Part shown: positions 4,880 through 63,622 of the stretch, one piece after another | Position numbering within the stretch: the stretch's first letter is position 1 | Layout: each line of letters starts with the position of its first letter | Assembly (NCBI GenBank): GCA_037384945.1 | Contig: JARRNM010000024.1 | Location: 5,297 to 69,296, forward strand | Origin: Deltaproteobacteria bacterium | GTDB taxonomy: Bacteria > Desulfobacterota > Syntrophobacteria > BM002 | DNA: 64,000 nt | Direction of reading: 5' to 3' | The notes under the pieces: generated by a model | Databases searched by the model: none | Told to the model about the DNA's origin: nothing | Seen by the model: only the letters and a program-made list of their open reading frames with translations | Made by a program: the position numbers and the translations under genes

Positions 4880-4922
4880 ATGTTTCTCTCCCTCTTTCCA
4901 GATTACTTACCAAGTAATTGAC

Positions 4923-5334
4923 CACACAGAGCACAAAGGTCACAAAGGATAAACGATAGAGATCGTTAAAGTCGTTAAAGTCGTTGAAGTCGTTAAAGTC
5001 GTTGAAGTCGTTGAAGTCGTTGAAGTCGTTGAAGTCGTAAACGGTAAACGGTAAACCGTTGAAACTATTCCTTTCTCAGGTCTAAACTTTGAACTTGGAA
5101 CTTTGAACTTGGAACTTGAATCCTCCGACCTCCGACCTCTGACCTCCGACCTCTGACCTCCGTCCTCTGTCCTCCCGCGTCTGTCCTCTGTCCTCTCACC
5201 TCGTCTCGCTCGACATCCCGTCTCGTCTTACTCCATGCTCTATGCCCTATGCCTATGTCACAACGGACCACGGACCACGGACAACTGACACTCAACGGTT
5301 TCTACGATTTCAACGATTTCAACGGCTGTATCGT
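4923..5334. repeat. intergenic word-chain repeat region between E2 and lpdA
   Basis: About ten different tandem word modules in series (see finding 1). Confidence 0.95.
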
Positions 5335-6654
5335 TTACATATGCATCATGAGTTTCTCCGGGCTCTCCAGGACCTCGATGATTACATTGAGGAAGCGAGC
5401 TGCATCAGCTCCATCAGCTATCCGGTGGTCGAAACCAACACAGAGGGGAAGCATCAATCTCGGCACTACCTGGCAATTGTCCAGATCCCCCTGAATAACC
5501 GGTTGAAGTCGTGCCTGAGCGACGCCGAGAATGGCTACCTGGGGATAGTTAACAATAGGAGTGAAGCCGGTACCTCCCAGGGGGCCGACATTGGTTATGG
5601 TAAAGGTACCCCCGGCGAGCTCTTGGCGCTCCACCTCACCCTCACGAGTCCGCTCCGCCAGTTCATACAACTCGAGTGCAAGTTCGGTGATACTCTTCCG
5701 GTCCACATCCCTGACGACCGGAACTATCAGGCCCCGTTCAGTGTCAACCGCCACTCCTATGTGGTAGTAATTTTTGAGAATAATCTCTCCCTTCTTAACA
5801 TCCAGGCTGGCATTGAAACGGGGATGCTCCTTCAGGGCAGCAACAGCGGCTTTAAGAATAAACATGGTAAGGGTGAGCTTTCCGCCCTGCGTTTCGATTT
5901 CACTCTGATGCTTGCGTCGAAATACCTCCAGTTCACTGACGTCCGCCACATCCTCATGGGTGACGTGGGGAATTTGAGACCACGCCAGAGTCATACGGTT
6001 TGCTGTGGCTCTCCTGATGGAACGCAAAGGCTTTCTCTCTATAGGCCCCCAACTGCTGAAGTCTGGAAGCGGCGGCGGCGCAAGCTGAACCGGCCGTGAA
6101 ACCTCCGGCTGTTCAATCTCTTTTTCGGGAGCTTTTTCCTCCTCGACTTTCGTCGCCTTTGCCTGAGAGTAAGACCGCACGTCCTCAGCAGTGACCTGTC
6201 CTTGGGGTCCGCTGGGGGTCACCTGGCGCAGGTCTACTCCCAATTCACGAGCCAATCGCCGGGTGGAAGGAGCGGCGGGCACCGGTTCCTCTTTTCCCTC
6301 ATCAACCTTAGGCCTGGGCTCCTTCTTTTCTTCCGCAGCCTTTTCCTCAACCTTTCTCTTTTCTTTTTTTACTTTCCCTTTCTCTTTTTTCCCCGCGGCG
6401 ACCTCAGCTTCTTCTCCCTTCTCCAGGAAGGTCATAAGCACTTGGCCCACTTTCACCACGTCTCCCACTTTAACTGGAATGCTCTGGACGACACCGTCCA
6501 CCGGTGAGGGGATCTCAGTGGCCGCCTTGTCCGTTTCCACCACAAGGATCGCTTGACCGTCCTCGACCTGGTCTCCTTCGGAAACCAGAATTTCGACAAT
6601 CTCCGCTTCGTGGATACCCTCTCCTGGATCTGGCATCTTGAATTCCTTCGGCAT
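5335..6654 (-). CDS. dihydrolipoamide acyltransferase (E2)
   Basis: N-terminal lipoyl domain (VETDKA), a Lys/Glu/Pro-rich linker, a subunit-binding segment (PSTRRLARELGVDL), and the catalytic DHRIADGA motif. Confidence 0.95.
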   Translation of the reverse strand: MPKEFKMPDPGEGIHEAEIVEILVSEGDQVEDGQAILVVETDKAATEIPSPVDGVVQSIPVKVGDVVKVGQVLMTFLEKGEEAEVAAGKKEKGKVKKEKRKVEEKAAEEKKEPRPKVDEGKEEPVPAAPSTRRLARELGVDLRQVTPSGPQGQVTAEDVRSYSQAKATKVEEEKAPEKEIEQPEVSRPVQLAPPPLPDFSSWGPIERKPLRSIRRATANRMTLAWSQIPHVTHEDVADVSELEVFRRKHQSEIETQGGKLTLTMFILKAAVAALKEHPRFNASLDVKKGEIILKNYYHIGVAVDTERGLIVPVVRDVDRKSITELALELYELAERTREGEVERQELAGGTFTITNVGPLGGTGFTPIVNYPQVAILGVAQARLQPVIQGDLDNCQVVPRLMLPLCVGFDHRIADGADAARFLNVIIEVLESPEKLMMHM

Positions 6655-6704
6655 GGCAACTTCTCCTCTTCTGATGCTAAATGCGATGCTTGTGATTTTT
6701 CAAG

Positions 6705-6986
6705 CCACAGAGCTCACCAAGTCCCCGTCAATTCGTCGATTAGTCAACTCGTCAAATGGTTCAATGGTCAAAGAGTTAATTCGCCACTGAAGCTATTCAG
6801 AACCGTTTGACCTTTGGGCATGTTAACGATTTGGCTTCCTGCCTGTTACCTCGGCGCTCTAATCCCCGTCTCGCTCGTCTCGCCCGACATCTCGTCTCGT
6901 ATTACTCCATGCTCTATGCCTTCCCCACAACGGACCACCCCAGTGGAATGGACTTCGTATTCCACGGGGCAGGAGGACAACTGACA
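6705..6986 (+). repeat. composite word-chain element between E1 beta and E2
   Basis: Collinear with the reverse complement of 31224-31447. Confidence 0.9.
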
Positions 6987-6994
6987 ATCCCTGA

Positions 6995-7981
6995 TTAAGC
7001 AACAAACTTGAGCGTCTTTCTCGCTGCCAGCAGAATTCTATGCACCCCGGGCAGATAATCATTCTCCCTTTGAAAGAGGGGAATAATGACATCGAATCCC
7101 GTAACCCTGGCAATGGGTGCCTCCAGGTAGAGAAAAGACTTTTCCACCAGGCGGGACGCCACTTCCGCTCCGGGGCCAAAACTTCGATGTGCTTCGTGAA
7201 CGATTACTGCGCGACCGGTTTTTTGCACCGACTGGTTCAACAATTTGTCGTCCAGCGGCGATATAGTGAGCAGGTCGATGACTTCCGGTTCGACTCCGTC
7301 ACTCTTTTTCAGTTCTTCCGCAGCCTTTATGGTGGGCCGCATCATGGCCCCATAGGAGATCATGGTCAGATCCTTGCCTTCCTGAACGACTTCGGCCTTG
7401 CCCAGGGGAATGGTTTCTTCTTCATCGGGAACCTCTTCCCGGAAGGCGCGGTAGATGGCTTTGGGTTCATAGAATATTACCGGGTCCGGGTCGCGGATGG
7501 CGCTCACCAGCAAGGCCCGTGCATTGCGCGGCGAGGAGGGAATGACCGTTTTGAGCCCGGGGGTGTGAGCATAGTACGCCTCTTTGCTCTCGGAGTGATG
7601 TTCCAGCGCTCTCACCCCCCCACCATAAGGAGCACGCAATACCATGGGTACGTGAAAGCGCCCACCGGAGCGACCTCTCAAGCGAACGGCGTGATTTTCC
7701 ATCTGGTGGAGGCACATGTAGCTAAAGCCGGAAAATTGAATTTCACAAACCGGTCGAAGGCCGTAGACCGCCATACCTATGCTAACGGCGCAAATTGCCG
7801 ACTCGGCAAGGGGAGTATCCATAACCCGCTCTTTGCCGAACTTCTCTATAAGTCCATCAGTAACTCGAAAAACGCCCCCATCCACTCCCACATCCTCGCC
7901 CAAGACGATCACCCCATCATCCTGCTCCATTTCTTGGTGCAGGGCGAGGTTGATTGCTTGAATCATGGTCAATGCAGCCAT
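6995..7981 (-). CDS. 2-oxoacid dehydrogenase E1 component beta subunit
   Basis: Transketolase-like pyrimidine-binding and C-terminal domains. I chose the internal ATG (MAALTMIQAINLAL), which lies 4 nt after the E1 alpha stop; the longer ORF to 8077 overlaps E1 alpha. Confidence 0.9.
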   Translation of the reverse strand: MAALTMIQAINLALHQEMEQDDGVIVLGEDVGVDGGVFRVTDGLIEKFGKERVMDTPLAESAICAVSIGMAVYGLRPVCEIQFSGFSYMCLHQMENHAVRLRGRSGGRFHVPMVLRAPYGGGVRALEHHSESKEAYYAHTPGLKTVIPSSPRNARALLVSAIRDPDPVIFYEPKAIYRAFREEVPDEEETIPLGKAEVVQEGKDLTMISYGAMMRPTIKAAEELKKSDGVEPEVIDLLTISPLDDKLLNQSVQKTGRAVIVHEAHRSFGPGAEVASRLVEKSFLYLEAPIARVTGFDVIIPLFQRENDYLPGVHRILLAARKTLKFVA

Positions 7982-7985
7982 CGGT

Positions 7986-9083
7986 CTACTCCTTTTCTTC
8001 CTTTTCTGCCAATTCCAGGCTGAGTTCTTCTCGTTGTTCCTCGAGGTAGGGCGGTAATTCTTCGAAAACGTTGTCAAACATGAGCAAGGGATCCCCGAGC
8101 TCCTTTTGTTTTTTCTCGTAGCCTGTCACTGCTTCCTTGATCTCCTGCTTGATCTCTTCCTCCAGGGAATCGATCTCTTTTGCCGAAAGCAGGTCTCTGT
8201 CAATCAGGTATTTCTGAAATCGGCTGAGGGGGTCTCGTTTGGACCATTCTTCTAACTCTTCCTCCTTCCGGTAGCGTTTCGGATCGTCTGCTGTGGTGTG
8301 CATGGTCATCCTGTAAGTCACGCATTCAATCATGCTGGGCCCTCCTCCCGATCGACCCCTTTCCACACATTCCTTTGCCGCGGCATAAACTGCGAGTATA
8401 TCGTTTCCATCCACCTGCATTCCGGGAATGCCGTAGGCAAGAGCCTTTTGCGCCAGGGTCTTGGAACGGCTTTGCTGGGCCCGCGGAATGGAGATGGCCC
8501 AGTGATTGTTTTGGCAGACAAAGATAGTGGGAGTCTGGAATACCCCGGCAAAATTCAGGGCTTCGTGGAAATCACCTTCCGAGGTGGCGCCATCGCCGAA
8601 GAAAACCATGGCCACATTCTTTTTTCCCCGGTATTTAATAGCATAGCCTAGTCCTACGGCATGGGGAATTTGGGTGCCAACGGGGATAGATACGGGCAGG
8701 TTGTTGATGCCTTCTGGAATAGTACCTCCCTCGTTGTACCCACCATAGGCAAGGAGGACACTTTCGAGGCTCTTGCCGCGCCATACCTCTGCAGCCATTT
8801 CCCGAAAGGAGGGAAGCAGCCAATCGTCGTCCTCCAGAGTTGCAGCAGCACCCAACTGGGAGGCCTCCTGCCCCTTGATGGGGGCGAAGGTCCCTATACG
8901 CCCCTGGCGCTGCAGGCTTAGCAAGCGCTCATCAAACCTTCGGCTCAGCAGCATTGATCGGTGTAGTTTGATCAAGAGCTCCTCCGGCATGTTCGGCTCG
9001 AGCTCTTCGTCTACTTGGCCATCTTCGCTCAAAATTGAAAGGTATTCGATCCGGCAGGGGATATCAACTTTTTCTCGTGGCAC
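7986..9083 (-). CDS. 2-oxoacid dehydrogenase E1 component alpha subunit (TPP-dependent)
   Basis: TPP-binding GDGATSEGDFHEALNFA motif, GTG start. Substrate (pyruvate, branched-chain or acetoin) cannot be determined. Confidence 0.9.
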   Translation of the reverse strand: MPREKVDIPCRIEYLSILSEDGQVDEELEPNMPEELLIKLHRSMLLSRRFDERLLSLQRQGRIGTFAPIKGQEASQLGAAATLEDDDWLLPSFREMAAEVWRGKSLESVLLAYGGYNEGGTIPEGINNLPVSIPVGTQIPHAVGLGYAIKYRGKKNVAMVFFGDGATSEGDFHEALNFAGVFQTPTIFVCQNNHWAISIPRAQQSRSKTLAQKALAYGIPGMQVDGNDILAVYAAAKECVERGRSGGGPSMIECVTYRMTMHTTADDPKRYRKEEELEEWSKRDPLSRFQKYLIDRDLLSAKEIDSLEEEIKQEIKEAVTGYEKKQKELGDPLLMFDNVFEELPPYLEEQREELSLELAEKEEKE

Positions 9084-9313: not shown

Positions 9314-11734
9314 TTATTCAACCATCTCCCCCAAAACCAGTTCAACGGCAGAGCCGGCCTCGAGATCGTAGGTTTTTTCCTTGAAACCAACCTTGATGGG
9401 CATCTCTGTGCTCTTCAAGGTACGCACCTGCAAGCGATCTGAGGTCACTTCCACCTCCAGAGCGTGGCCTCGGTAGCGAATATGCACGTGGAGTTTTGCC
9501 ATTTCCTCCGGCAAACACGGGTTAAACCAGAGTACGTTGTCACGGGGCTCGATACCGGTATAACAGTGGGTAATCAGGTCAACAGTGCCCGCCATGGCTC
9601 CCAGGTGGATACCTTCCGGCGTCGTTCCCCCCTGAATATCCTCAATGTCGCTTTTCAAGGCCTCGCAAAAGAATTTCCAGGAACGAATCCGGTCCGAGCG
9701 AGCAAGGACCCATGAATGTACTACCCGACTGAGGGTGGAACCGTGTGAGGTTCTCCTTAGGTAATAATCTATATTCTTGGGTATAGTCTTGTACTCGAAA
9801 GAATACCCCAGCTGATTAAAGAGCTTTTGCAGTTTCTCCGATGAGAAGAGATAGAAGAGCATGAGCACATCTGCCTGCTTTGAGGCTTTGTAGCCGTTAG
9901 GGGTATCGTCTTCCGCCTCCAGGACGCGATCCAACCTTTGGATATCTTTATATTTCCGGCGATAGCCTTGCCAGTCAAACTCCTCGAGTTTGTCGTAGCC
10001 TTCAAATTGACTGATGATACCTTCACCATGGAACACCAAACGCATTTTCCTGCTTATTTCTCGCCATTTCTCAATTTCCTCCTGACGGAGGTCGATGCTT
10101 TCGAGGAGTTCCCTGGAACGCTCCTCCGGCAAGATTCCGGGTATCTCCAGGGCACGGTTGAACACCCACACTGCCATGAGGTTGGTGTAAGCATTGTTGT
10201 TCAGGCCCGGTTGTTCCCCTTGCGGGTAACCGTCATGGTATTCGTCCGGGCCCATAACCCTCAAGATTTCGTAACGATCCATCTCAGAGTTGTAGGTTGC
10301 TATGCTGGCCCAGAAACGGGCTATCTCCAAAATCATCTCCGCTCCATAGAAGGAGAGGAATTCCATGTCCCCGGTAACCTCGTAGTAATGCCAGACATTG
10401 TAGGCAATGGCTGAATTCACGTGGCGTTGCAGGTGAGAGTTGTCAGGGAGCCATCGTCCAGATTTAGGATTGAGATGAACTTCCTGGGTTTCTTCCCGGC
10501 CGTTGCTGCCGCTTTGCCAGGGAAACATGGCGCCAGAATATCCAGCCTTTTTGGCAGCAAGGCGAGCCCGGTCTAGGCGGCGAAAGCGGTACATAAGTAA
10601 TGATCGGGTGATTTCCGGAAGACGGAGGTTCAACATGGGGAAAACAAACAGCTCGTCCCAAAAGACGTGGCCGCGGTAAGCCTCACCGTGCCAGCCCCGG
10701 GAGGGCACTCCCACGTCAAGGTCCATGGTATGGGTGGACGTTGTCTGGAGCAAGTGAAAGATGTAGAGGCGGAGGATAATTTCGGTGCGGTCGCTTTCCT
10801 CCGGCCTCCTGTGAACAAAATCTACCTCGAAGCGACGCCAAAGATGCTCCCAGGACCGGGCGTGGCTCTCCAGCAGCCCCTCGAAGGAGCCGGCGCGGGC
10901 CACAGCGTTGTGTGCTTCTAGGCCGCCCTCGGAGATGGCTTTGTCCCGGGAGGTGAAAAAGGTAACTATTTTTTCGATGCGGACCTGGGCGCCCTTTTCT
11001 AGGTGAACGAGAAATTCCTGGAAGATGCGTCCGGGCTCCTTAAGACAGCTTTTTAATCGCTGATGAGGTTGACCGTGCAGAAACACTCTCGTCCGGGCGC
11101 CCTGGGCAATGGTTAATTTTGACTGCTTGGTCAGCACTTTTAGATAAATGGTTTCCTCGTCCACTTCTTCGGTTATCAGGGGTTCCAGGTGGTTGCTGTT
11201 CAGCTCCTTGTAGCGGTCCACGCCTTGATTTGTCACCAGGCCGTCCAGTCCGGAGCGGATTTCCAGTTCCCCCGACCAGTTTTCCGCTGTTAGCCGCATT
11301 TCCAGGGCAGCGAGATGCTTGTCGGCCATATGGACCAACCGCCGCTCCTCTACGTTGGTCTGTCTCCCCTGGTGGTCACGAAAACTGATGGTTCTGAGGA
11401 GGATACCACGGCGCAAGTCCAGTTCCTGGCGATAGGAGAGAATCTCCACCTCCTTAAGGGAAAACCAGTCGGATCCAGGTAGTCGAAAGGTAAGGGGTAA
11501 CCAGTTGGGCATATTTACCAGATCCTCGTTTTCAATGACCCGCCCGGCGATTTCCGTGTCCAGCCGGTTATAACCACCGGCAAGGTAGGTACCTGGATAG
11601 TGCACTCCATCCGCCACGGTTTCAGTTCCGGCTCCTCTGGTGGCGAAGTAACCATTGCCCAGGGTGCACAAGGCCTCTCGCAGCCCTTCCTCTCGAGGAT
11701 TGAATCCATGGTATACTAGCGACCACCGGCTCAT
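9314..11734 (-). CDS. glycoside hydrolase family 65 phosphorylase (trehalose/kojibiose/maltose-type)
   Basis: 806 aa. The N-terminus LGNGYFATRGA and the overall architecture are typical of GH65. Its start overlaps the stop of the upstream beta-PGM/T6PP gene by 4 nt (ATGA). Confidence 0.9.
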   Translation of the reverse strand: MSRWSLVYHGFNPREEGLREALCTLGNGYFATRGAGTETVADGVHYPGTYLAGGYNRLDTEIAGRVIENEDLVNMPNWLPLTFRLPGSDWFSLKEVEILSYRQELDLRRGILLRTISFRDHQGRQTNVEERRLVHMADKHLAALEMRLTAENWSGELEIRSGLDGLVTNQGVDRYKELNSNHLEPLITEEVDEETIYLKVLTKQSKLTIAQGARTRVFLHGQPHQRLKSCLKEPGRIFQEFLVHLEKGAQVRIEKIVTFFTSRDKAISEGGLEAHNAVARAGSFEGLLESHARSWEHLWRRFEVDFVHRRPEESDRTEIILRLYIFHLLQTTSTHTMDLDVGVPSRGWHGEAYRGHVFWDELFVFPMLNLRLPEITRSLLMYRFRRLDRARLAAKKAGYSGAMFPWQSGSNGREETQEVHLNPKSGRWLPDNSHLQRHVNSAIAYNVWHYYEVTGDMEFLSFYGAEMILEIARFWASIATYNSEMDRYEILRVMGPDEYHDGYPQGEQPGLNNNAYTNLMAVWVFNRALEIPGILPEERSRELLESIDLRQEEIEKWREISRKMRLVFHGEGIISQFEGYDKLEEFDWQGYRRKYKDIQRLDRVLEAEDDTPNGYKASKQADVLMLFYLFSSEKLQKLFNQLGYSFEYKTIPKNIDYYLRRTSHGSTLSRVVHSWVLARSDRIRSWKFFCEALKSDIEDIQGGTTPEGIHLGAMAGTVDLITHCYTGIEPRDNVLWFNPCLPEEMAKLHVHIRYRGHALEVEVTSDRLQVRTLKSTEMPIKVGFKEKTYDLEAGSAVELVLGEMVE

Positions 11735-13297
11735 TGCTCTTCTCCCTTCACCCTAGAGGCAAGTTTTTGCAGAAACTCACCAACCTCGTGCGGATCTGCC
11801 AGCTGGTATTGAGCTTCGGTTTTGGGGGAACCTTTCGCCACCAAAATGGTGATGCCCCGGTCCTTGAGCGCTCTGAAACCGTCTTCATCGGTGGTGTCAT
11901 CGCCGATGTAGAAGGGCAGAACATTGGCTTGATTGAGCTCCAGCTCGTCCAGCAGCCAGAGGAGGGCTTTTCCCTTGTGCCAATCGAGGTTGGGCTGCAG
12001 TTCAAAGACCTTCTTTCCCGAGGACTTATGCAAATCCGGACAGTTCTCCAGCACCCGGTCAACAGCGGCTTCCACCCGGCCGATGTTGTCTTCGGCCACC
12101 TTGCGGTAGTGGGCGGCAATGGAAAACTTCTTTCGTTCCACCAGAGCACCGGGAATGCTCTGCAGCTGGCTCTGCAGCCCTTGCTCGGCTCGATCCAGAA
12201 CTGGAAGAAATTCTGCGGCTTTCTGGGCTTCCTTACGCTCACCACCAGGACCGGCTATATCGAAACCATGGCTGCCGGCGTAGTAGATGGAGTCGATGTC
12301 CACCAGTTGTCGCACATCCTTTAAGTCCCTGCCACTTATGATCCCTACGGTGCAGTACTTGGCTAATTGTTTTACGGTATGGCGCATCTCTTTGGAGAGG
12401 ACCGCCAGTTCAGGGCTACTCACAATTGGGGTCAAGGTGCCGTCGTAATCAAGAAAAACTGCCATCCTTTTGTTTTTAGCCCTCCGTCTAATTTCAGCCA
12501 TTTGTTCCAGAGGAGAGGGCAAAGATGATGTCTCGCTGTTGGACTGAGCCGCCACTTTGATTTCCGCCAGGTCCTTCACTACCACGTGTGCGCCGCTTTC
12601 TTTCAAGGCTGCGGTTTGCTCCTCTCTGTCCACGCCGATAACGCAAGCAAACTCTCCCCTCTTACCAGCTTCGACGCCGGCGATGGCGTCCTCGACCACA
12701 ATAGCACGGTTGGGGTTTACTCCGAGTCTGCGAGCGGCTTCGAGGAACATATCGGGAGCGGGCTTTCCTGGGAGATTAAGCTCGGCGAGATCCACTCCGT
12801 CAACTTTGGCCTCGAACAGGTGAGTGAGCTTTGCCGCCTCCAATACGGCAGCACAATTCTTACTGGAGGAGGCCACGGCCGTCTTGAGATTGTTGCGGCG
12901 GAGGGCATGAATCAGATCAACGGTGGATTGGAAAACAGGAGCCCCGTTTAAGTAGATCATTGAACAGTTCATTCTTGCGGTTGCCCAGACCGCAGATGGT
13001 TTCCTTTCCTGGGTCGTCGTCGGGGTCACCGTAGGGAATGTTTATGGAGCGAGCTTGCAGAAAACTCTCAACCCCATCATAGCGAGGCTTGCCGTCCACG
13101 TAGCGGCGGTAGTCTTCAGTGCGGTCGAAGGGTTGGTAGGACCTGCCTTCTCGTTCACCCCGTTCCTTCAGATATTCGTCGAACATCTGTTTCCAGGCGT
13201 CGGCATGCACTTCAGCGGTTTTGGTAACCACGCCATCCAGATCGAAGATTACTGCGTCGTAAGTGGAAGGATTGATGGTGAAGCCCGGAGTCGTCAT
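11731..13297 (-). pseudogene. beta-phosphoglucomutase (HAD) fused to trehalose-6-phosphate phosphatase, interrupted by a +1 frameshift
   Basis: ORF 12917..13297 carries FDLDGVV and ends inside the HAD cap. ORF 11731..13029 continues the same domain in another frame (KTAVASSS, VEDAIAGVEAGK), followed by a TPP domain (FLDYDGTLTPI). Confidence 0.8.
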
Positions 13298-13312
13298 GCA
13301 AATGCTCCTCTC

Positions 13313-13499
13313 TTAGCCCGGATGTTTCATGAATGACTTGCTGCGACCGTGGATATGGCCGTCCTTCCGTGCGTCCTCGGGTGTCGCACCCTGCGACGTA
13401 CCGTTCAGGTACGGTTCGGGTCCGACACCCTGCGGTTGCCCGGTGGCACTCCCATCTTCACAGTCTCGCGACAGCAATTCATGAAACATCCGGTGCTAG
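13313..13499 (+). repeat. copy A of a ~180-nt structured element (candidate ncRNA or MITE)
   Basis: The termini pair over ~22 bp (CCGGATGTTTCATGAAT ... ATTCATGAAACATCCGG plus a TTAGC/GCTAG extension). There is an internal hairpin CGTACC-GTTCA-GGTACG and a conserved core CCCATCTTCACAGTCTCGCGAC. Confidence 0.7.
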
Positions 13500-14365: not shown

Positions 14366-14791
14366 TCAAGACGAGGTGGAATGACGGACACCAGGTTTGT
14401 CGACAATTTGCACGGTGCTCGCCTGTGGCCCTTTGTCGCCCATAGTTTCCACGTATCTCACCCCGGTGCCGATTTCCAATCGGTCGAAGTCATCAGCGAG
14501 CACACTGTTTCGGTGGAAATAAAGGACTCGGCCATCAACAGTTTTTAGAAAACCGTAATCCTTCTCAGGGAACAGCTTGTCAACCAAGGCCACCCTTTGA
14601 ACGCTCAAATAAATCCCCACCCGGTAGGGACTACCGCTACGCTGGTGTTCCTGCGAGCTTTCCACCGTCACCCTGATGCTGATTATATAAGTGCAGAGCC
14701 GCTCAAGCTTGCCTACCTTTCTGCGGATTAGCTCTTCTGTGGCGGCCGTCTTTTGCACATCCCGATAGGTAATTTCCAAGGGGATTTGCAT
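14366..14791 (-). CDS. HPF/RaiA-like N-terminal domain fused to a cold-shock-like domain (short variant)
   Basis: The N-terminus MQIPLEITYRDV...YRVGIYLSV is HPF/RaiA-like. The C-terminus LFPEKDYGFLKTVDGRVLYFHRNSVL...GDKGPQAS is CSD-like. Confidence 0.7.
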   Translation of the reverse strand: MQIPLEITYRDVQKTAATEELIRRKVGKLERLCTYIISIRVTVESSQEHQRSGSPYRVGIYLSVQRVALVDKLFPEKDYGFLKTVDGRVLYFHRNSVLADDFDRLEIGTGVRYVETMGDKGPQASTVQIVDKPGVRHSTSS

Positions 14792-19055: not shown

Positions 19056-19345
19056 ACCACAAAGATCACAAAGAACACAAAGTAGTACCAAAAACCTAGT
19101 TTGATATCTTTGTGCACTTCGTGTTTTGAGCGGAACGAAGGATCTCGAGATTCTTCGTCGCCCCGCCATTAGCGGGACTCCTCAGAATGACAACCGAAAA
19201 GCAAGTTTCCGGAGGACACTAATTAGAGAATTGGAAAATTAGGAAATTGGTAAAACCGTGAACGGTAAACGGTGAAACCTAATACAACTGGTTGTCTAAT
19301 TCCCTAATGTCCTAATTTCCTAATTCTCTAATTCTCAACCCGCTA
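19056..19345. repeat. intergenic word-chain repeat region
   Basis: CACAAAG words, a 60-nt dispersed repeat (19133-19193), AATTAGAGAATT / CCTAATTTCCTAATTCTCTAATT words in inverted arrangement, and GGTAAAC words. Confidence 0.85.
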
Positions 19346-23074: not shown

Positions 23075-23220
23075 ATGTCATTCTGAGCCCTTCACTGTGT
23101 TCAGAACAGGCTCCGCGAAGAAACAGACAATTTGTCATCCCGAGGCCCGCCCAGGCGGGACGAAGGGTCTCGAGATTCTTCGTCGTCCCGCCCTTAGCGG
23201 GACTCCTCAGAATGGCAACC
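23075..23220. repeat. imperfect palindrome containing the GTCATTCTGAG / CTCAGAATG repeat family
   Basis: TGTCATTCTGAGC (23085) pairs with CCTCAGAATGGCA (23205). The 3' 60 nt is ~90% identical to 19133-19193. Confidence 0.8.
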
Positions 23221-23478
23221 GAGAAACACGCTTTCGGATGGACACTAAATAACTGAACGGAGCGTCAAAAATGGATGTGTATCCCCCATCAAAAGATGAT
23301 CCGAGATAGGGGTGGGCTTTACGCCCACCCGATGGGCGGATTTCAACACGTTTCCGAGCGGGAATAAATTCCGCCCCTGCGACAAGATTCAAAAAAGTAT
23401 GCACAATAATCATGACCTTGTATTTAAATAGCTTTAGTATCTTGTTGAGGCCGGGTTTGCTTGCGGTTAGAGTAAGGT

Positions 23479-26668: not shown

Positions 26669-26682
26669 ATAACCAATTTTGG

Positions 26683-27060
26683 CGGGAAGGCACGGACTTC
26701 GGCGAGCTCAGTCGAGCCGTGGCCTGCCCGCCATCGCGAGCCTGCTCGCTCAGGCGAGGCGGGCGGGGGGATTTTGCTGCCCACTGTTCGCTGTTAGCCG
26801 TCAGGGTGGCCGACTCTACTTCCTAAATCCCAAATCTTTACCCTGTGGAATCCCCCGTAGGGGGTCCGCCGGAGGTGGAATTCCACAGGGCAGGTCCGCA
26901 ATCCACAATCAACATTCTGTCCTCTGTCGTTTGTCCTCTAACCCCGTCTCGCCCGTCTCGCTCGACGTCTCGTCTCGTTTTACTCCATACCCTATGCCCA
27001 GTGACAGCGAAGCGCAGTGACCCAATGAGGCCGGAGGCAAGTGACGCGAAGCACTAGCTA
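26683..27060. repeat. intergenic word-chain repeat region
   Basis: A long GC hairpin (GGCGGGAAGGCACGG...CCGTGGCCTGCCCGCC), then TGTCCTC, CGTCTCG, TTACTCCATACCCTATGCCC and GTGAC(A/G)CGAAGC words. Confidence 0.85.
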
Positions 27061-27896: not shown

Positions 27897-28365
27897 GTAG
27901 GGCGGGCGACCCTGCCCGCCATCTGAGTAAACCACAGAGCACACGGAGAACACAGAGAAAAGACAAAAGATTACATTGATATCTTTGTGAACTTTGTGCC
28001 CTTTGTGGTTCTCTCTCTGCTGGCACGTAGCGGCAGGCACGGTGGCCTGCCCTACGAGTCACCGGTCACTTTGTGACCTTCGTGGTTTTTGGTACCGGTT
28101 GTCTGCCAGCTACCCGCCGCAATCCTTTTGAGCAATGAAGCGACTCCTTGTCTTGAACTTCCTTGCTCCCGGCCCCATTAGCTGCTGGCCCCAGCGGATG
28201 GGGCTTTTTTTGTAGGGGCAGGCATGTTGGCCTGCCCTATCTCAGAGGCCAGAAGTCGGATGTCGGAGATCAGTCTGACCTCTAATCTTTGCCTGCTGCC
28301 CGCTGCCCGCTGTTTTTCGTGGTTGACAGGAAACAGAAACCTCTTGCCCACTGCCATACCGATCA
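27897..28365. repeat. intergenic word-chain / hairpin repeat region
   Basis: GTAGGGCGGGCGACCCTGCCCGCC, CACAGAG/CACGGAG words, inverted CACAAAG words, GTAGCGGCAGGCACGGTGGCCTGCCCTAC, GTCGGA words and CTGCCCGCTG words. Confidence 0.85.
28188..28211 (+). terminator. Rho-independent terminator-like hairpin
   Basis: GCCCCA-GCGGA-TGGGGC stem-loop followed directly by T7. Confidence 0.6.
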
Positions 28366-30929: not shown

Positions 30930-31166
30930 ATGAAGAATGCAGAGCTTTACCAAGTGGGCAAGGGTGAATGGAACATCCCTGAACTGCGAAGCCTTTTGGA
31001 CAGAGTAGTCGAGTCCGGCAAAACCGTAAAAGGTTATAAATTGGAAGCCGAGTTCCCAGGTCTGGGACACAAGGTGCTGCTCCTTGACGCGAATCCCATA
31101 GAGGCAAAGGACGAGCGGCCCGAGATGATTCTGGTCATTATGAGGGAGATTAAGGAACAGGGGTAG
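30930..31166 (+). CDS. stand-alone PAS-like fragment (hypothetical)
   Basis: 78 aa. W.IPELRSLL...GYKLEAEFPGLGHKVLLLDANPI resembles the PAS module usually found at the C-terminal end of CheB/CheR fusions. It starts 12 nt after the upstream stop. Confidence 0.4.
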   Translation: MKNAELYQVGKGEWNIPELRSLLDRVVESGKTVKGYKLEAEFPGLGHKVLLLDANPIEAKDERPEMILVIMREIKEQG

Positions 31167-31450
31167 GTCGGCGGGGAGGGTCGCCCGCCCTACAGTAGGG
31201 CAGCCCACCGTGCCTGCCGCTGAGTCAGTTGTCCTTGATCAGTGGTCCGTTGCAGAAAAACAGCGAGACGAGCGAGACGAGAATCAGAGGTCGGAGGTCG
31301 GAAGTCAGAGATCAAATCGTCAACTAGTCGAATGGTCAAATAGTTCTGAATGGCCTCAGCGGCAATCTAATGGTTTGACTATTCAATCATTTGACCATTT
31401 GACTAATCGACCAATTGACTTCTCTGTGGTCTCCGTGGGCTCTGTGGTTT
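31164..31450 (-). repeat. composite word-chain element, inverted copy of 6705-6986
   Basis: In reverse complement it is collinear with 6705-6986: CCACAGAG, GTCAATTNGTCGATTAGTCAA, ATGGTCAAA, ATTNGCCNCTGANGNNATTCAGAAC..TTTGACC, CGTCTCGCTCGTCTCGC, CAACGGACCAC, GGACAACTGAC. Confidence 0.85.
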
Positions 31451-31479
31451 AAATAATCAACACCACAGGGAGGATAGTA

Positions 31480-33594
31480 ATGTCTAAATTAGACAAAGAA
31501 AAATTTGTCGATCTTCGGGAAAGGGCGGAGCGGGTCCTGACCGAATCTCCTGGAGGGCTCCAAAAGATACCCACAGATGTGCAGGAGCTTATCCATGAGC
31601 TGCAAGTTAGAAGTGTCGAGCTGGAAATACAGAATGAACAGCTCAGGGAAACCCAGCTTGAGCTCCAGCAGTCGCATGACCGGTATGTCGAACTCTATGA
31701 CTTCGCCCCGGTTGGATATCTCACCATGGACAGCAATGGATTTATTGTCCAGGCCAACCTGGCTGTTTGCGCTTTGTTAAAAACACAAAGAAACGTATTG
31801 TTGACTCAGCCATTCAACGATTATGTGAAAGCTTCTCAGCGGAATGAATTTGAAAACCATCTCAGTCTGGTGAGCGCAACCTTGAGCAAACAAACCTGCG
31901 AACTCGAGCTAGTGGCCAGTAATCGCTCGGAGGTCGACGTTGAGATGCTAACGGTTCCCATTGACAGCCCGGATGATGACCATGCACTGTGGTACCGGGC
32001 AATCTTAACCGATATCGGTGAACGGAAGAGAAGGGATGAAGCCTTGCAACAGGCTTATGAAGAACTGGATCTGCGCGTGGAAGAGCGTACCAGAGAACTG
32101 GTGACGATGAATGAGCAGCTGAAAGGGGTCATAAGAAAGCGGGAGCAACTGGCACAGAACCTCCAGTTAGAAGTGGAAGAACGCAAGAAAATAGAGGGAG
32201 TCCTGCGAGAAAGCGAAGAACTTTTCCGGCGCACCTTTGATGAAGCGCCAATCGGTGCGGCGATTATTTCAACGGACTTTCGATTTAAAAGGGTCAACTC
32301 TGCATTGTGCTCCATCACGGGTTATTCTCAAGAAGAACTCGAGTCTCTCAGCTTTATGGATATCACTCATCCTGAGGATAGAGCGGATAGCGGATAACCT
32401 GAAAATGGCCCAAAAACTTGCCTCCGGTGAACTCCGCGATTATCAAGTGGAGAAGCGATACATACAAAAAGAAGGCAAAATTGTCTGGGTGCGTGCCTCC
32501 ATCGAAGTGATGCGAGATGAAGCAGGAGAGCCGATTTATTACCTGCCAATGACGGAGGACATCACAGAAAAGAAAAAGGTAGAGATTAAATTACGTGAAA
32601 GCGAGGAGAAGTACCGCCTGCTGATCCAGAATTTGCCGGGGGTTGTCTACAAGGGACAGAGAGATTGGTCGGTGGAATTCTTTGATGAAAAGGCTGAAAG
32701 GTTTACAGGGTACAAAGTGGAGGAATTTTGTTCCGGCCGGAAAAAATGGTCCGACCTGATCCTGGAAGAGGACTTCGACAGAGCCAAGGAACCACTCGTC
32801 AGGGCTCTTAGGACGGACAGATCCTTCCGGAAAAAATGGTCCGACCTGATCCCGGAAGAGGACTTCGACAGAGCCAAGGAACCATTCGTCAGGGCTCTTA
32901 GGACGGACAGATCCTTTGTCAGGGAATACCGAATAAGATGCAAGGATGGACAAATTTGTTGGGTGCAGGACCGGGGAACCATAGTGTGCGATGAAAAGGG
33001 AGAGATCCTTTCTGTGAACGGCGTTCCAAACTAAGGGTTGATTCAATGAGATATGGGGAAGTATCCAGCAAGATCTCTCCTGAGCTTGAGGCACTAAGTA
33101 GGAATCTCGAGGATGCCATAGAACAGACCCAATCTTTGATATTCAGGCTCAGCCCGCCGGTTCTTTACCAGGTTGGCTTGAGTGAGGCGCTGGAGTACCT
33201 GACCGAGTTGATGGAAACAAGTTATGGTATCCCCATCGCAGTAAGTTCTGAGTTAAACTCTCTGCTGCTGCCTGAAGATGAATCCGTCCTGCTCTTTCGA
33301 GCGGTGCAGGAACTGCTGATAAACATCGTCAAGCACGCTGGAGCCAGCAGATCCAGCGTAACTCTGAAAAGAAGTGATAATCAGGTGCAGGTTGAGGTTC
33401 AGGACGACGGGGTGGGTTTCGATACACGCCTATTATCAGCGCAAGGATCAGTGAAAAAGGGGTTTGGTCTGCTCAATATCCGGGAACGTTTGCACAATCT
33501 CGGTGGACATATGGAGGTTCAATCCTCACCTGGTGGCGGCACCAAGGTTAGCATCACAGCACCGTTGCCAACCGAGACTGGCAATACTCAATAA
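31480..33594 (+). pseudogene. multi-PAS NarL-type (HisKA_3) sensor histidine kinase with multiple lesions
   Basis: Three ORF pieces (31480-32397, 32237-33034, 33046-33594). There is a 7-bp tandem duplication frameshift, a 90-bp tandem duplication, and the H-box is missing ahead of an intact HATPase_c (GVGFD, GFGLLNIRERL). Confidence 0.8.
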
Positions 33595-34261: not shown

Positions 34262-34770
34262 TCAGGTCAAGGCGACACGGTGACAGGGAGACACGGAGAC
34301 GCGGCGATTAGAGATCAGCTGGCAGATTCCAGCGTGCAGCTTGCAGGGCAGGCCACTGTGCCTGCCGCTACATGTCAGTTGTCCGTGGTCAGTGGTCCGT
34401 TGCCACAAAGCGATTATGAATCGTGTTTTTAGATTGAAACCACGCCGGGATGGCGGGGACAGTGCCCCGCCCTACGGCACAAATCCCAAATCCCAAGCAC
34501 CAAATCCCAAACAAATTCTAAATCACAATTCTCCAATGTTCAAAACAGTGTCGTAGAAACCGCAGAAGTCGTAGAAATCGTATAAGTCGTCAATTCAGCT
34601 CACAGGAAGCTTGTCATCTGATCTCTGACTTCCGACCTCCGACCTCTGATCCTCGTCTCGCCCGTCTCGCCCGACCTCCCGTCTCGCCTTACTCCATGCC
34701 CTATGCCCAGTCCCCCATCTCATTTAAAAATCAGCATTTCTGAACCGACAAATCAGACTCCCTCCTATTG
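34262..34770. repeat. intergenic word-chain repeat region
   Basis: GACACGG words, two GC hairpins, AAATCCCAAATCCCAAGCACCAAATCCCAAAC, GTCGTAGAAA words, CCGACCTC words, CGTCTCGCC words and TTACTCCATGCCCTATGCCC. Confidence 0.9.
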
Positions 34771-37328: not shown

Positions 37329-37399
37329 AAAGGGAAATAACTATAAACTATAGTAAGCCGTTCCAGTATTTACCCTGTTACTTGCATCATCAGAGGACA

Positions 37400-37600
37400 G
37401 GGTGAAAATCCCGAAGTCCAAATTTCAAATTACAAACAAATTCAAAATTTCAATTCTTCGATTTTCAAAATATTCATACTTGCATTCAATATTGGTTTTG
37501 AATTTTGCATTTAGGTAATTGAAATTTGTGTGGGATTTGGTGCTTGGGAATTGGGATTCATGCCGACTAGGGTAGGCCACCGCTCCTGCCGTGAGCCGAC
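37400..37600. repeat. intergenic word-chain repeat region
   Basis: AAATTTCAAAT/AATTCAAAA words in inverted arrangement, the reverse complement of the CCCAAATCCCAAGCACC module, and a degenerate GC hairpin. Confidence 0.8.
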
Positions 37601-50239: not shown

Positions 50240-50384
50240 GCGGATTTCGCCATTGGTTATCGGGTTCTATGGAGTTTCTCAGTAAATTTTCATTCCGCAG
50301 TATGTATGCCGCGATCGGCAAGCGTCGATCTGGGGGCACGCCCATCTTCATGGTCTCGCGACAGTAATTCACGAAATATCCGGG
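50240..50384 (+). repeat. copy B (degenerate) of the ~180-nt structured element
   Basis: The 3' part CACGCCCATCTTCATGGTCTCGCGACAGTAATTCACGAAATATCCGG matches copy A. The 5' arm GCGGATTTCGCCATT pairs only partially. Confidence 0.55.
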
Positions 50385-50433
50385 CTAAATGAACAATACC
50401 TTCGCACCTTGTTGGCGCCAAGGAGATTATCAC

Positions 50434-53923: not shown

Positions 53924-54073
53924 AAATCCCCCTTTAGAGGCTGTCCGACAACGTCATTCTGAGGCGTGAGCCGAAGAATCTCGAAGGCGTAAGTACCTGA
54001 ATCGATGAGATTCGCTCAGAATGACAGCAGGAGGCGTTGAGTGAGTTGTCGGACAGCCTCTTTAGGGGGATTT
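53924..54073. repeat. 150-bp nested palindrome
   Basis: Outer arms AAATCCCCCTTTAGAGGCTGTCCGACAAC / GTTGTCGGACAGCCTCTTTAGGGGGATTT. Inner arms GTCATTCTGAGG / GCTCAGAATGAC. Confidence 0.85.
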
Positions 54074-55523: not shown

Positions 55524-55798
55524 GCCTAACCTCCTTCAGAGGAAGCCGTTCAATCGTTCGGTTTCGGCGAACTCGTTCTAACCGTTCAAATGATTGAAAT
55601 CGTTAAAAATAAAGTAGCCAGTAGCCAGCAGTCAGTAGGTAAGAAAAAAGACTCTTGCCTCCATCTTCTGGATTCTGAATTCTCTGCGTTTTCCTAAATT
55701 CGAAATTCTAAGTCCGAAATTCAAAATTGTTTTCTGTCTTCTGTCCTCAGTCGTCTGTCCTCCGACCTCTGACTTCCGTTATCCCTGGTCTCCGTGGT
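55524..55798. repeat. intergenic word-chain repeat region inside pilus cluster
   Basis: CGTTCAA/CGTTGAA words, GTAGCCAGTAGCCAGCAGTCAGTAGG, TCTGGATTCTGAATTCTC, CGAAATTC words, TGTCCTC words and CCGACCTCTGAC. Confidence 0.85.
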
Positions 55799-58969: not shown

Positions 58970-58989
58970 TTTCCTCCCATCGTAGCTGG

Positions 58990-59077
58990 AATCCTGGAGT
59001 GTTGGAATAATGGAATATTGGGTACAGTTTCCAAGTTTCCATCATTCCACCATTCCATCATTCCCTACTCCCCAGGG
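58990..59077. repeat. short word-chain repeat
   Basis: GGAATAATGGAATATTGG inverted against CCATCATTCCACCATTCCATCATTCC. Confidence 0.75.
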
Positions 59078-59608: not shown

Positions 59609-59793
59609 TAAAATCGTTCTATCGTTCGCTTCCAGCGAACTCGTCCAAATCGGAAGAGCTCAAGCTGACAGCAGTCAGTGGCCAGTCCTTAATTTCGAAA
59701 TTTGAAATTTGCACTTCGCAATCTTCTTCTCTATGCTCCATGCCCTATGCCCCATGCGGCGAACGGGGTGGGCTACAACGGACCACGGACTCC
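59609..59793. repeat. intergenic word-chain repeat region inside pilus cluster
   Basis: CGTTC words, CAGTCAGTGGCCAGTCC, AATTTCGAAATTTGAAATTTGC, CTATGCTCCATGCCCTATGCCCCATGC and ACAACGGACCACGGAC. Confidence 0.85.
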
Positions 59794-60351: not shown

Positions 60352-60732
60352 TCTACTCTCCGAGCCTGTCAGTAGTCGGTCGTCCGTTGTTAAAGCCGTT
60401 CTATCATCAGGCTTCGCCGGATTGGTTCAAATCGTGAAAAATCTTAAGATCATCATCATGTTCAATTTTTCCGTGGGGCGGGGCACCGTACCCGTCTTAA
60501 GACTCTTTAGTGAAAAGCTCTCTGTCGGCCGGCACGGTGGCCGGCCCTACTCCTGAATTCTGGATTCTGACTCTTTACTCCTTGCTCTCTGCCCTATGCT
60601 CTATGCTCTATACTTACCGCAATCCGAAATTTACGTCCGGCTTCTGACCTCTGTCTCCTTTACCTTATGGCTGGCGCCCTGAGCCTTGTGCCCCTAGTTC
60701 CATGCCCCATGCCTAACCACGGACAATTGACT
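60352..60732. repeat. intergenic word-chain repeat region inside pilus cluster
   Basis: GTCAGTAGTCGGTCGTCCGTTG, two GC hairpins (GGGGCGGGGCACCG..., GTCGGCCGGCACGGTGGCCGGCCCTAC), CTGAATTCTGGATTCTGAC, CTATGCC words, and CCATGCCCCATGCC...CCACGGACAATTGAC. Confidence 0.9.
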
Positions 60733-62962: not shown

Positions 62963-63622
62963 CTAACCCACATTTTTCGCGAAACGGCGTCGCGAGACTG
63001 TAAAGATGGGCGTACCACCGGGCAACCACAGGGGGTTGGATCCAAGACGTACTTGAATAGTACGTCGCAGGAGCCGACACCCGAGGACGACCGTAAGGAC
63101 AGCTATATCTGCAGTAGCAACAGGCGATTCGTGAAATATGTGGGTTAAGTTCAAATAGTCAGGACAAGAAACTTCTGAACCTTCACACCCCTCGCCCTGC
63201 TCACGACAGAATCTCGAGCGGAGAACTCGCGTTGCCTCTCCATAAGTGCCGGTGGAGATAACGCTGACACACATGTAAGTGCCGCCCTCCACCTCGCAGT
63301 TGCCATAAGAACAATAGGAGTCTGAGGCTATGGTGAAAGTCCCGCTGCCAAGAGTCTTCTCCGCTTCAATTGAGTTCCAGCAGCGAAGGTCACTGAGGTA
63401 TTTGCCAGCCCAATTAATTCCCGCCTCTGCCACATAAAAGGCGCTGGTTGATTGAGCCGTAATCGGCACTGACTTTTGCTTGCTGGCCATCATACTTACC
63501 ATGGAGTAACCAATGGCAGACAGTACCAGCATGACGAAGACTACAACCAGCACCGAAAAGCCTCTCTGACCCCTCAGTAGCCCCAGTAGCCCATTTGTCT
63601 CTTGCTCACAGGTTTGTTTCAT
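62963..63622 (-). CDS. PilX-like minor (pseudo)pilin; C-terminal ~61 codons read through element copy C
   Basis: QRGFSVLVVVFVMLVLSAIGYSM ... SAFYVAEAGINWA matches the PilX N-terminal domain. The stop TAG sits at the last bases of the element. Confidence 0.6.
   Translation of the reverse strand: MKQTCEQETNGLLGLLRGQRGFSVLVVVFVMLVLSAIGYSMVSMMASKQKSVPITAQSTSAFYVAEAGINWAGKYLSDLRCWNSIEAEKTLGSGTFTIASDSYCSYGNCEVEGGTYMCVSVISTGTYGEATRVLRSRFCREQGEGCEGSEVSCPDYLNLTHIFHESPVATADIAVLTVVLGCRLLRRTIQVRLGSNPLWLPGGTPIFTVSRRRFAKNVG
62964..63147 (-). repeat. copy C of the ~180-nt structured element (inverted relative to copy A)
   Basis: Termini TAACCCACATTTTTCGCGAA / TTCGTGAAATATGTGGGTTA pair. Hairpin GACGTACT-TGAAT-AGTACGTC. 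Core GTCGCGAGACTGTAAAGATGGG is the reverse complement of the copy A core. Confidence 0.7.

Follow-up and report, generated by a model that had tools for sequence, protein, structure and literature searches.

Nearly every intergenic gap in the window studied here, a stretch of 64,000 nucleotides (nt) from an uncultured sediment bacterium with proteins deposited under the label "MAG: Deltaproteobacteria bacterium" (MAG, metagenome-assembled genome; MEJ2428222.1 and others), is filled with short tandem words. A preliminary description of this DNA reported that one chain of such words, at 6705-6986, is collinear with the reverse complement of another, at 31224-31447, and took both to be copies of a modular dispersed element with a grammar, not independent microsatellites. 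The locus therefore raises the question of whether such an element exists and where its order comes from. Our analysis supports a modular dispersed element with a grammar: a third copy of its core was found at another locus, the order of modules is non-random, and the copies differ by whole modules.

Region A (6655-6994) separates two minus-strand genes of a 2-oxoacid dehydrogenase operon (E1alpha-E1beta-E2-E3), namely E1beta at 6995-8077 and E2 at 5335-6654. Region B (31167-31479) is flanked by a small open reading frame (ORF) ending at 31166 and by a PAS-domain gene starting at 31480 (plus strand). In both, the CCACAGAG end points at the start codon of the downstream gene, and the two copies thus have the same orientation relative to that gene. 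All eight words listed in the preliminary description are present in A and B in the order and orientation given there, and the collinearity was borne out, with ~200 nt aligned at 73-75% identity. A repeat search of the window returned an ungapped match of 157 nt at 75% (6727-6883 versus 31263-31419), and blastn aligned 197 nt at 73% (E=2e-31); on the gene-proximal side the similarity reaches slightly beyond the limits first noted, to ~6693 and ~31459. The Smith-Waterman score of the pair was 89, compared with 9.7+/-1.2 for dinucleotide shuffles of B (z=66). When B was instead permuted in blocks of 8, 16, and 24 nt, as a control with shuffled module strings, scores rose to 12.8+/-2.5, 18.1+/-3.6, and 23.4+/-6.1, with a maximum of 52, so that the A-B collinearity stayed above all block permutations (z=11-31). 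The pair was also the best of the 153 spacer pairs within the window, the runner-up scoring 52. The resemblance is real and far beyond chance; A and B are paralogs, since diverged, of a single composite repeat.

The only part of the composite that does not look like a microsatellite is its core (P1), a 110-nt imperfect palindrome with arms of tandem 8-nt units (GTCAATTN/NAATTGAC) around a conserved loop, GCCRCTGARGCYATTCAGAAC. Exact-protein look-up recovered the same operon from three contig groups: the same strain (L001-L003 and L203; E3 nucleotide identity to the window 99.9%, for L203), a sister lineage (L197/L200/L201; 96.3%), and a more distant lineage (L122/L123; 90.3%). The aligned DNA of the two other lineages is ~87-95% identical to that of the window lineage. 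In ~1.3 Mb of related sequence, nhmmer found the core at three loci, namely A, B, and the E2-E3 spacer of the sister lineage (copy C, L197:3507-3615). Core identities are 76.4% between A and B, 80.0% between A and C, and 91.8% between B and C, and the non-repetitive sequence stays in register with no indels among the three copies. Alignment of the composites showed A, B, and C to be collinear and to differ by whole modules, in the order ACGGA, [CTATG], CGTCT, [TGTCC], CCGAC, [CTGCC], core, and proximal array, where bracketed modules occur in some copies only. B contains an inverted repeat (I14) with 35-nt arms of 80% identity; terminal inverted repeats are thus a property of the core only and not of the 280-nt composite.

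The gain or loss of whole modules proposed in the preliminary description was correct for TTACTCCATGCTCTATGCC, which A has and B lacks, but CCGACCTC, said to be confined to B, has a decayed remnant in A. The TTACTCCATGCTCTATGCC 19-mer was also found in 67 metagenome contigs, representing 53 non-redundant contexts. The CGTCTCG array of A forms, with the module next to it, a repeat family (D3) with copies in the window at 5174, 6848, 26926, and 34635, 74-85% identical to the reference copy; by blastn, the CGTCT-CTATG block of A is 94% identical to the neighboring spacer at 5200-5246, 1.3 kb away. A 32-nt hairpin (6938-6969) has been inserted into the ACGGACC/ACTGACA module of A, the corresponding module of B being uninterrupted, and a hairpin related to this insert lies at ~26850-26895. 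The gene-proximal segment of A holds the CTCTGTGG word (6705-6712), a ribosome-binding site, the E2 start, and a promoter-like TTGAAA-18-TAGCAT at 6703-6674 (a consensus match only). In the proximal chain of B, the junction CTCTGTGGTTTAAA is identical to that of the E1beta-E2 spacers of all lineages.

Three other gaps had been said to follow the same relative order. This was fully so for 4923-5334 and partly so for 26683-27060, whereas 34262-34770 keeps CCGAC > CGTCT > CTATG but carries the ACGGACC/ACTGACA module upstream and inverted. The fullest chain, in the E2-E3 spacer (4880-5334), runs CACAG, (GTCGTTGAA)x8, GGTAAAC, AACTTGG, CCGACCTC, TGTCCTC, CGTCTCG, TTACTCCATGC/CTATGCC, ACGGACC/ACTGACA, and an inverted TCAACGATT array. 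The chain at 34373-34707 shares 55 nt with B at 95% identity (repeat I3).

The composite might act as a structured RNA, either a 5' untranslated region or an intercistronic element, for example a signal for processing, stability, or translation control. A and its neighboring chain lie in the dehydrogenase operon and others lie in a pilus operon, so these chains are probably transcribed; purines usually predominate on the sense strand, where GGAGG-like motifs recur, and B folds well. However, the long hairpin of the B spacer forms equally well on either strand (z of -3.5 and -4.3), and folding of the A spacer as a whole, on its sense strand, is no better than that of shuffles (z about 0). Over 14 spacers, fold z was -1.81 for the sense and -1.62 for the antisense strand, with the sense strand better in seven. 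The DNA folds of the three core copies gave z of -2.8 to -3.7, but in the A core ~12 of the 40 consensus hairpin pairs are broken and one is compensated (covariation term +3.2, unfavorable). No Rfam family matched the window at its gathering score, and chains are also present in convergent gaps and run in either orientation. A structured RNA is therefore very unlikely; the core is a DNA-level palindrome that is decaying in A.

Comparison of the lineages showed how these spacers change. Within the strain, A was unchanged in L001-L003 and carried one substitution in L203, while the 9-nt array (AACGACTTC)n of the E2-E3 spacer varied in whole units, with 8, 9, 11, or 12 copies among contigs. Between lineages, the E1beta-E2 spacer holds three unrelated fillings. 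That of the window is A; that of L197/L200 is an AAATCCC/GGGATTT palindrome, 85% identical over 159 nt to window 37399-37557; and that of L122 is a CACAAAG hairpin, a CCGAC array, and half of the AAATCCC/GGGATTT palindrome. Homology ends exactly at the E1beta stop codon and restarts at GGTG(A/T)GCTCTGTGG, ~65 nt before the E2 start. Identity at four-fold sites is 73-83% to L122 (78% as a single value) and 86.0% to L200, levels at which an orthologous interior would still align; since none aligns, the interior has been replaced, as a cassette running from the stop codon to the proximal CTCTGTG array. The E2-E3 spacer of the sister lineage similarly has its interior, 4950-5165, replaced by the segment bearing copy C, and pieces of the window E2-E3 spacer match other spacers in L122. 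Five spacers in ~13 kb differ by replacement between the window lineage and L200. The replacements are similar in length (289 versus 249 nt, 252 versus 254 nt) and leave no clean empty site. The parts that are retained show no detectable constraint: over ungapped columns, the orthologous part of the E2-E3 chain has 86.8% identity, compared with 86.0% for four-fold sites, with 7-8-nt indels in addition, and the gene-proximal segment of A (67 nt) is 85.5% identical to L200. Retained chains thus evolve at the neutral rate. For B, an ortholog search with the downstream PAS gene gave a best other match of only 41% identity, so that it yielded no orthologous B locus for comparison.

The preliminary description had pointed to defined ends and target-site duplications as marks to look for. 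Neither was found on either side of A, B, or C, and "element" is therefore not meant in the sense of a transposon. The composite, or its 110-nt core, could be a non-autonomous element of the MITE (miniature inverted-repeat transposable element), REPIN (paired repetitive extragenic palindromic, or REP, sequences), or BOX type, moved by a transposase encoded elsewhere. The core is fixed at 110 nt in three copies at three loci, has long inverted arms, and differs in position between close relatives. REP-like GTAGGG hairpins, a hallmark of repeats mobilized by REP-associated tyrosine transposases (RAYTs; PMC2817692), adjoin B and number 10 in the window, and BOX elements, too, are built of modules and vary in how many internal units they contain (PMC3049150). 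We consider such an element fairly unlikely, as homology fades differently into the modules flanking A, B, and C, spacers are exchanged at similar length, the core is present at only three loci in ~1.3 Mb, and Pfam detected no transposase or RAYT among the proteins of the 64-kb window.

Two MITE-like repeats in the same genomes were observed alongside. A hairpin repeat of ~180 nt lies at 13312-13489 (minus), 62964-63149 (plus), in part at 50332-50387 (plus), and at L122:4690-4890; its RNA fold is extremely stable (z=-9.3), its copies are ~77% identical with arm changes that look compensatory, its ends are CTAGCCCGG...CCGGGCTAG, and it has no Rfam match. The window and L122 carry it upstream of the gene for trehalose-phosphate phosphatase, and L200 lacks it (4 versus 185 nt). 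A second insertion, ~195 nt long and bounded by the inverted ends CTCTAACGTTGTAAATCTGT...ACAGATTTACAACGTTAGAG, occupies the E3-M50 peptidase spacer in the sister lineages (L200:7622-7887, L122 ~11690-11900) and is absent from the window lineage (L003:4963-5033). As these bona fide MITEs show inverted ends and near-clean presence or absence, such signatures would have been visible for the composite.

The vocabulary of the chains comprises 15 or more families of words, repeated with a period of 7, 8, or 9 nt, plus palindromes of ~70-160 nt built of arrays. Tandem Repeats Finder listed 100 arrays in the window (38 rows of period 7, 18 of period 9, and 11 of period 8), which account for 14.2% of the non-coding DNA and 1.1% of the coding DNA; array DNA amounts to 1875 nt, against 14-87 nt in shuffled gaps. 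By pattern matching, 68 of 71 word-family modules fell within the 17% of the window listed as intergenic. Inverted pairs of arrays form the palindromes AATTAGA/TCTAATT, CACAGAG/CTTTGTG, TGGAATA/TATTCCA, and AAATCCC/GGGATTT.

Module order was then examined over many such spacers. An all-versus-all comparison of 240 non-redundant spacers gave 110 pairs of shared segments, of which 63 were collinear (27.5 expected under independence), 34 differed in orientation (55 expected), and 13 had the same orientation with reversed order (27.5 expected). The census of word families over 239 non-redundant spacers gave a ratio of same to different orientation of 110:37 (75%, null 50%), which was equaled in none of 2000 shuffles, and an order consistency of 102/110, reached in 9 of 2000. 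Pairwise, CCGAC preceded CTATG 8:0, CTATG preceded ACGGA 8:1, CCGAC preceded CGTCT 5:0, CGTCT preceded CTATG 5:0, and TGTCC preceded CGTCT 3:0; CCGAC and TGTCC are interchangeable (3:2). The chain CCGAC > TGTCC > CGTCT > CTATG > ACGGA is kept ~42:2. For a test outside the window we used as anchor the 19-mer mentioned above (TTACTCCATGCYCTATGCC), whose 67 metagenome contigs (53 non-redundant contexts) do not overlap the window and are mostly of 40-53% G+C. Within 200 nt of it, CCGAC, TGTCC, CGTCT, and CGTWG were found upstream only and in the same orientation (12:0), and ACGGA was found downstream (4:1). Residual orthology among the metagenome loci may inflate these order counts. The shared-segment, census, and anchor tests agree that module order is non-random, and the random order that the preliminary description had named as fatal to its reading was therefore not found. 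The grammar is a strong preference rather than a rule: in L022, CTATG comes before TGTCC/CGTCT; at 55728-55780, TGTCC comes before CCGAC; and at 34373, ACGGA is inverted. L022, a Syntrophobacterales MAG with similar chains, was the useful locus from a scan of a genome collection with CGTCTCGCYCGTCTCGC; this pattern is GC-rich and generic, and nearly all of its 118 matches were chance matches in unrelated high-GC genomes.

These results bear on whether the shared order could be coincidence, with microsatellites having arisen independently and happening to lie in the same order. The arrays do behave as microsatellites, as the copy number of the 9-nt array varies within the strain, and the same words abound throughout the window. 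But the match of A and B exceeds block-permuted module strings, the non-repetitive core is in register in three copies, and the order statistics over 239 spacers are non-random, which leaves coincidence an exceedingly small chance. The collinearity is equally expected from en bloc copying followed by indels.

An ordered array could also be read by proteins. The arrays might be binding sites for nucleoid-associated or regulatory proteins, their order being an architecture required upstream of promoters or between the genes of operons. Identical words are found in many contigs, and words that look similar by reading of the published consensus are found in Geobacter metallireducens, where sites for IHF/HU were proposed (PMC2700814). 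Moreover, the arrays are almost strictly intergenic, their orientation and order are non-random, and the CTCTGTG array always adjoins a promoter-like or ribosome-binding-site-proximal segment retained in all lineages. We hold such a role to be fairly improbable, as the interior is replaced wholesale at 90-96% nucleotide identity with the flanking operon unchanged, and the retained chains and proximal segment evolve at the neutral rate. Arrays were present in 16 of 31 convergent gaps (52%), 65 of 167 tandem gaps (39%), and 6 of 27 divergent gaps (22%), the last being promoter-only; a distribution commonest in convergent and rarest in divergent gaps is expected of DNA tolerated where it is least harmful and is not promoter-associated. 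Orientation relative to genes is only ~2:1. The sense strand of array DNA was G-rich in 43 gaps and C-rich in 21, and purine-rich in 46 of 65, a mild bias, and the 19-mer anchor was oriented 17 versus 8 relative to flanking genes, which is suggestive but alone not significant. Integron attC sites, Rho-utilization sites, TTGAC -35-like arrays, and three-frame stop-codon heptamers were also considered by reading, and none is a consistent fit across word families or orientations.

We favor, at about an even chance, a model where the chains are a genome-wide, selfish or neutral mosaic intergenic repeat system, akin to the STRR, BIME, BOX, and G. metallireducens repeats discussed below, spread by ectopic recombination and changed by slippage. 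Blocks of several modules would be copied from spacer to spacer by ectopic recombination or gene conversion, with exchange seeded in arrays common to many spacers, such as the CTCTGTG array adjoining the downstream gene. Individual arrays would then gain or lose whole units by replication slippage, point mutations would accrue at the neutral rate, and copies such as A would decay. The repeats would persist where they are least harmful, that is, in 3' flanks, convergent gaps, and intra-operon spacers. Order and orientation would be inherited from the donor, giving the appearance of a grammar. Copying anchored in shared arrays would result in replacement instead of insertion, with break points at the CTCTGTG array, and would explain why A has a mosaic ancestry, with a CGTCT-CTATG block 94% identical to the spacer 1.3 kb away and a core that matches those of B and C at only 76-80%. 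These patterns suggest that copying proceeds by recombination and that the chains lack a sequence-specific function.

Several points weigh against this model. The same long words recur in many contigs of 40-53% G+C (the 19-mer has 53 contexts), and G. metallireducens contains TCTCCGTSY and MTYCTGA arrays (PMC2700814). Because of this recurrence pure neutrality is insufficient, and function or horizontal spread is needed. No recombination intermediate or donor for A was found in the ~1.3 Mb of related sequence examined, where the nearest cores are 76-80% identical and gene predictions for the metagenome loci are crude. Finally, the 91.8% identity of the B and C cores is slightly above the neutral 86%, a marginal excess (9 differences versus ~15 expected per 110 nt). 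A distant-mode search of a plasmid collection with B and with 4880-5334 gave no match. Viral contigs gave one match each for the 19-mer anchor (L204) and the core loop (L205), the latter being rejected as it lies within a coding region whose surroundings have no similarity. A more ambitious proposal, which we think unlikely, is that of a hitherto unrecognized intergenic cassette class in a broad sediment Desulfobacterota-like clade, with a syntax over a conserved vocabulary of more than 15 words and array-palindromes. A dedicated, rather than accidental, recombination mechanism would exchange entire spacers, up to the promoter-proximal array, among loci and lineages, and sequence-specific proteins would read the arrays, so that a new cassette would re-tune the downstream gene.

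Among the closest known systems is that of G. metallireducens, which has multicopy intergenic tandem arrays of 7-9-mers with three to five units; two such arrays frequently face each other on opposite strands at variable distance (Aklujkar et al. 2009, PMC2700814). Both hosts are deltaproteobacterial, both have short intergenic tandem arrays, and by reading the opposite-strand pairing resembles the palindromic-array architecture seen here. Compared with the published consensus by reading, the units TCTCCGTS[Y] resemble TCTCCGTGG/GCTCTGTGG and MTYCTGA resembles CTTCTGA/CCTCTGA; the words so compared were CACAGAGAA x3 ... CTTTGTGAA x3 at 27931-28007 and TCTCTGTGG/TCTCCGTGG at 31421-31448. That paper, however, treats separate families and reports no inter-family order, 110-nt core, or cassette replacement (PMC2700814).

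A system that works as a mosaic modular repeat can be set beside several others. The short tandemly repeated repetitive (STRR) sequences of heterocystous cyanobacteria, which Mazel et al. are said to have described in 1990, are reportedly heptamers. We take the unit sequences here to differ from those of STRR, and the host is not cyanobacterial. As in STRR and the TAACTGA repeats of Beggiatoaceae, which are intergenic tandem heptamers at many loci with unknown function and a patchy distribution hinting at horizontal spread (PMC4679880), tandem units of ~7 nt at many loci are confined to intergenic DNA in the window. Those systems use one or a few heptamers, whereas the window chains string together 15 or more word families, in a preferred order, with palindromes; TAACTGA repeats lie within a few nt of start codons (PMC4679880), whereas the present chains fill whole spacers and favor 3' flanks. 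Bacterial interspersed mosaic elements (BIMEs) are likewise extragenic mosaics, which combine a small set of motifs in stereotyped ways and are located within operons and at the 3' ends of genes (PMC2817692), and REP-like hairpins stand beside the chains. BIMEs consist of REP palindromes (GC-rich, 20-40 nt, headed by GT[AG]G) that alternate in orientation and are joined by short linker motifs, whereas the chains are tandem arrays, 75% in the same orientation, with no RAYT in the window, and their GTAGGG hairpins are neighbors and not building blocks. The BOX elements of Streptococcus pneumoniae and S. suis, intergenic, strain-variable, and 67-637 bp long, have a fixed module order (boxA-boxB(n)-boxC) with variable module number (PMC3049150), as do our composites by the A/B/C alignment and the order census. 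BOX modules are, however, ~45-50 nt long with terminal inverted repeats and target-site duplications; here the arrays have 7-9-nt units, the chain ends differ (a CACAG array versus an ACGGA array) and do not pair, and no duplication was found. The system thus lacks defining marks of MITEs, BIMEs, and BOX elements, having no duplications, no alternating REP units, and no pairing termini. Our literature search on this lineage, whose coverage excludes most subscription journals, found no description of such chains. What appears new is the combination of many short-unit arrays and array-palindromes in a preferred order, a 110-nt core family, and cassette replacement from the stop codon to the proximal array.

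Features of the chains in the window (coordinates are those of the window)
Feature	Position	Strand	Evidence or remark
E2-E3 spacer, fullest chain	4880..5334	-	neighbor of A; word matches
Gene-proximal segment of A, retained in all three lineages	6655..6725	-	homology with L200, L122 resumes ~6721
P1 core, copy A	6726..6835	-	nhmmer E=2.8e-33
Decayed CCGACCTC/CTGACCTC heptamer array of A	6836..6866	-	ungapped alignment with the intact array of B, 31284-31310
CGTCTCG(C/Y) array of A	6867..6899	-	word matches
TTACTCCATGCTCTATGCC module	6902..6920	-	in A and C, absent from B
ACGGACC/ACTGACA module of A (CAACGGACCAC ... GGACAACTGAC)	6928..6986	-	interrupted by 32-nt hairpin
Partial chain TGTCC > CGTCT > TTACTCCATACCCTATGCC	26914..27005	+	89% to A over 64 nt (blastn)
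REP-like GTAGGGC(R)GGC hairpins, head-to-head doublet, gene-distal edge of B	31167..31221	.	heads at 31183/31195
B distal chain	31224..31310	+	ACGGA module 31224-31253, CGAGACG array 31263-31281, GAGGTCGG array 31284-31310
P1 core, copy B, palindrome intact	31311..31420	+	nhmmer E=1.8e-34
B proximal chain	31421..31479	+	9-nt array TCTCTGTGG/TCTCCGTGG/GCTCTGTGG, TTTAAATAATCA, ribosome-binding site; PAS gene start 31480
Partial chain CGTWG > CAATTCAGCTCACAG > CCGAC > CGTCT > CTATG	34373..34707	.	ACGGA upstream, inverted
Second palindromic composite family P2 (AAATCCC.../...GGGATTT)	37399..37557	+	85% over 159 nt to L197:1721-1879, E=3e-45
GTAGGGC(R)GGC heads	26139, 26181, 27897, 28045, 28230, 31183, 31195, 34343, 34465, 60540		

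Other observations were made around these features. The ten REP-like GTAGGGC(R)GGC hairpins are all intergenic (shuffle mean 1.7), and some form head-to-head doublets, as in REPINs. A dispersed 84-nt repeat (88%) at 19130-19213 and 23155-23238, and also at 53953-54040, lies at gene ends and carries GC-rich hairpins and a GTCATTCTGAG/CTCAGAATGAC motif. Chains fill the spacers 58970-59077, 59609-59793, and 60352-60732 of an MSHA-type pilus operon (secretin, PilO-like, PilM-like); this is unusually long non-coding DNA for intra-operon spacers and includes a TGGAATAA/TTATTCCA array palindrome. Downstream of B, the PAS-domain coding region contains a 90-nt tandem duplication at 32732-32911 (96-97%), near which two ORFs (31480-32397 and 32237-33034) overlap, a possible sign of a frameshift or of a split gene. 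A GH65 glycoside hydrolase gene and the HAD domain of a trehalose phosphatase are present in the window lineage and absent from the sister lineages (gaps of 2389 and 976 nt; window 9314-11734, minus, versus L200:1531-1552 and L122), so gene content is also variable around the trehalose and dehydrogenase cluster. A gene fusing an S30AE/HPF ribosome-hibernation domain to a cold-shock domain was found at 14366-14791 (minus) and L001:1700-2284; cold-shock proteins have been proposed as binders of heptamer repeats in Beggiatoaceae (PMC4679880). Lastly, the ORFs 26679-27020 (plus), 31210-31452 (plus), and 31190-31339 (minus), of 49-113 amino acids, lie wholly within word chains. Such ORFs are almost certainly not real genes, and annotation pipelines could mistake them for genes.

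Small intergenic repeats such as REP/BIME, BOX, STRR, and MITEs serve as markers for typing strains and can affect both the expression of operons and the plasticity of genomes. To our knowledge, almost nothing has been reported on intergenic repeats in uncultured sediment bacteria. Here, about one seventh of the non-coding DNA consists of ordered word chains, and at 90-96% nucleotide identity the replacement of spacers is the main difference in an otherwise syntenic operon. In practice, such spacers break short-read assemblies, create spurious ORFs (as at 26679-27020), and may lead binning astray. Should the syntax stem from a mechanism, be it directed recombination or reading by proteins, it would represent a new mode of regulatory evolution; if the chains are selfish DNA, they would still be a clear example of "grammar by descent."

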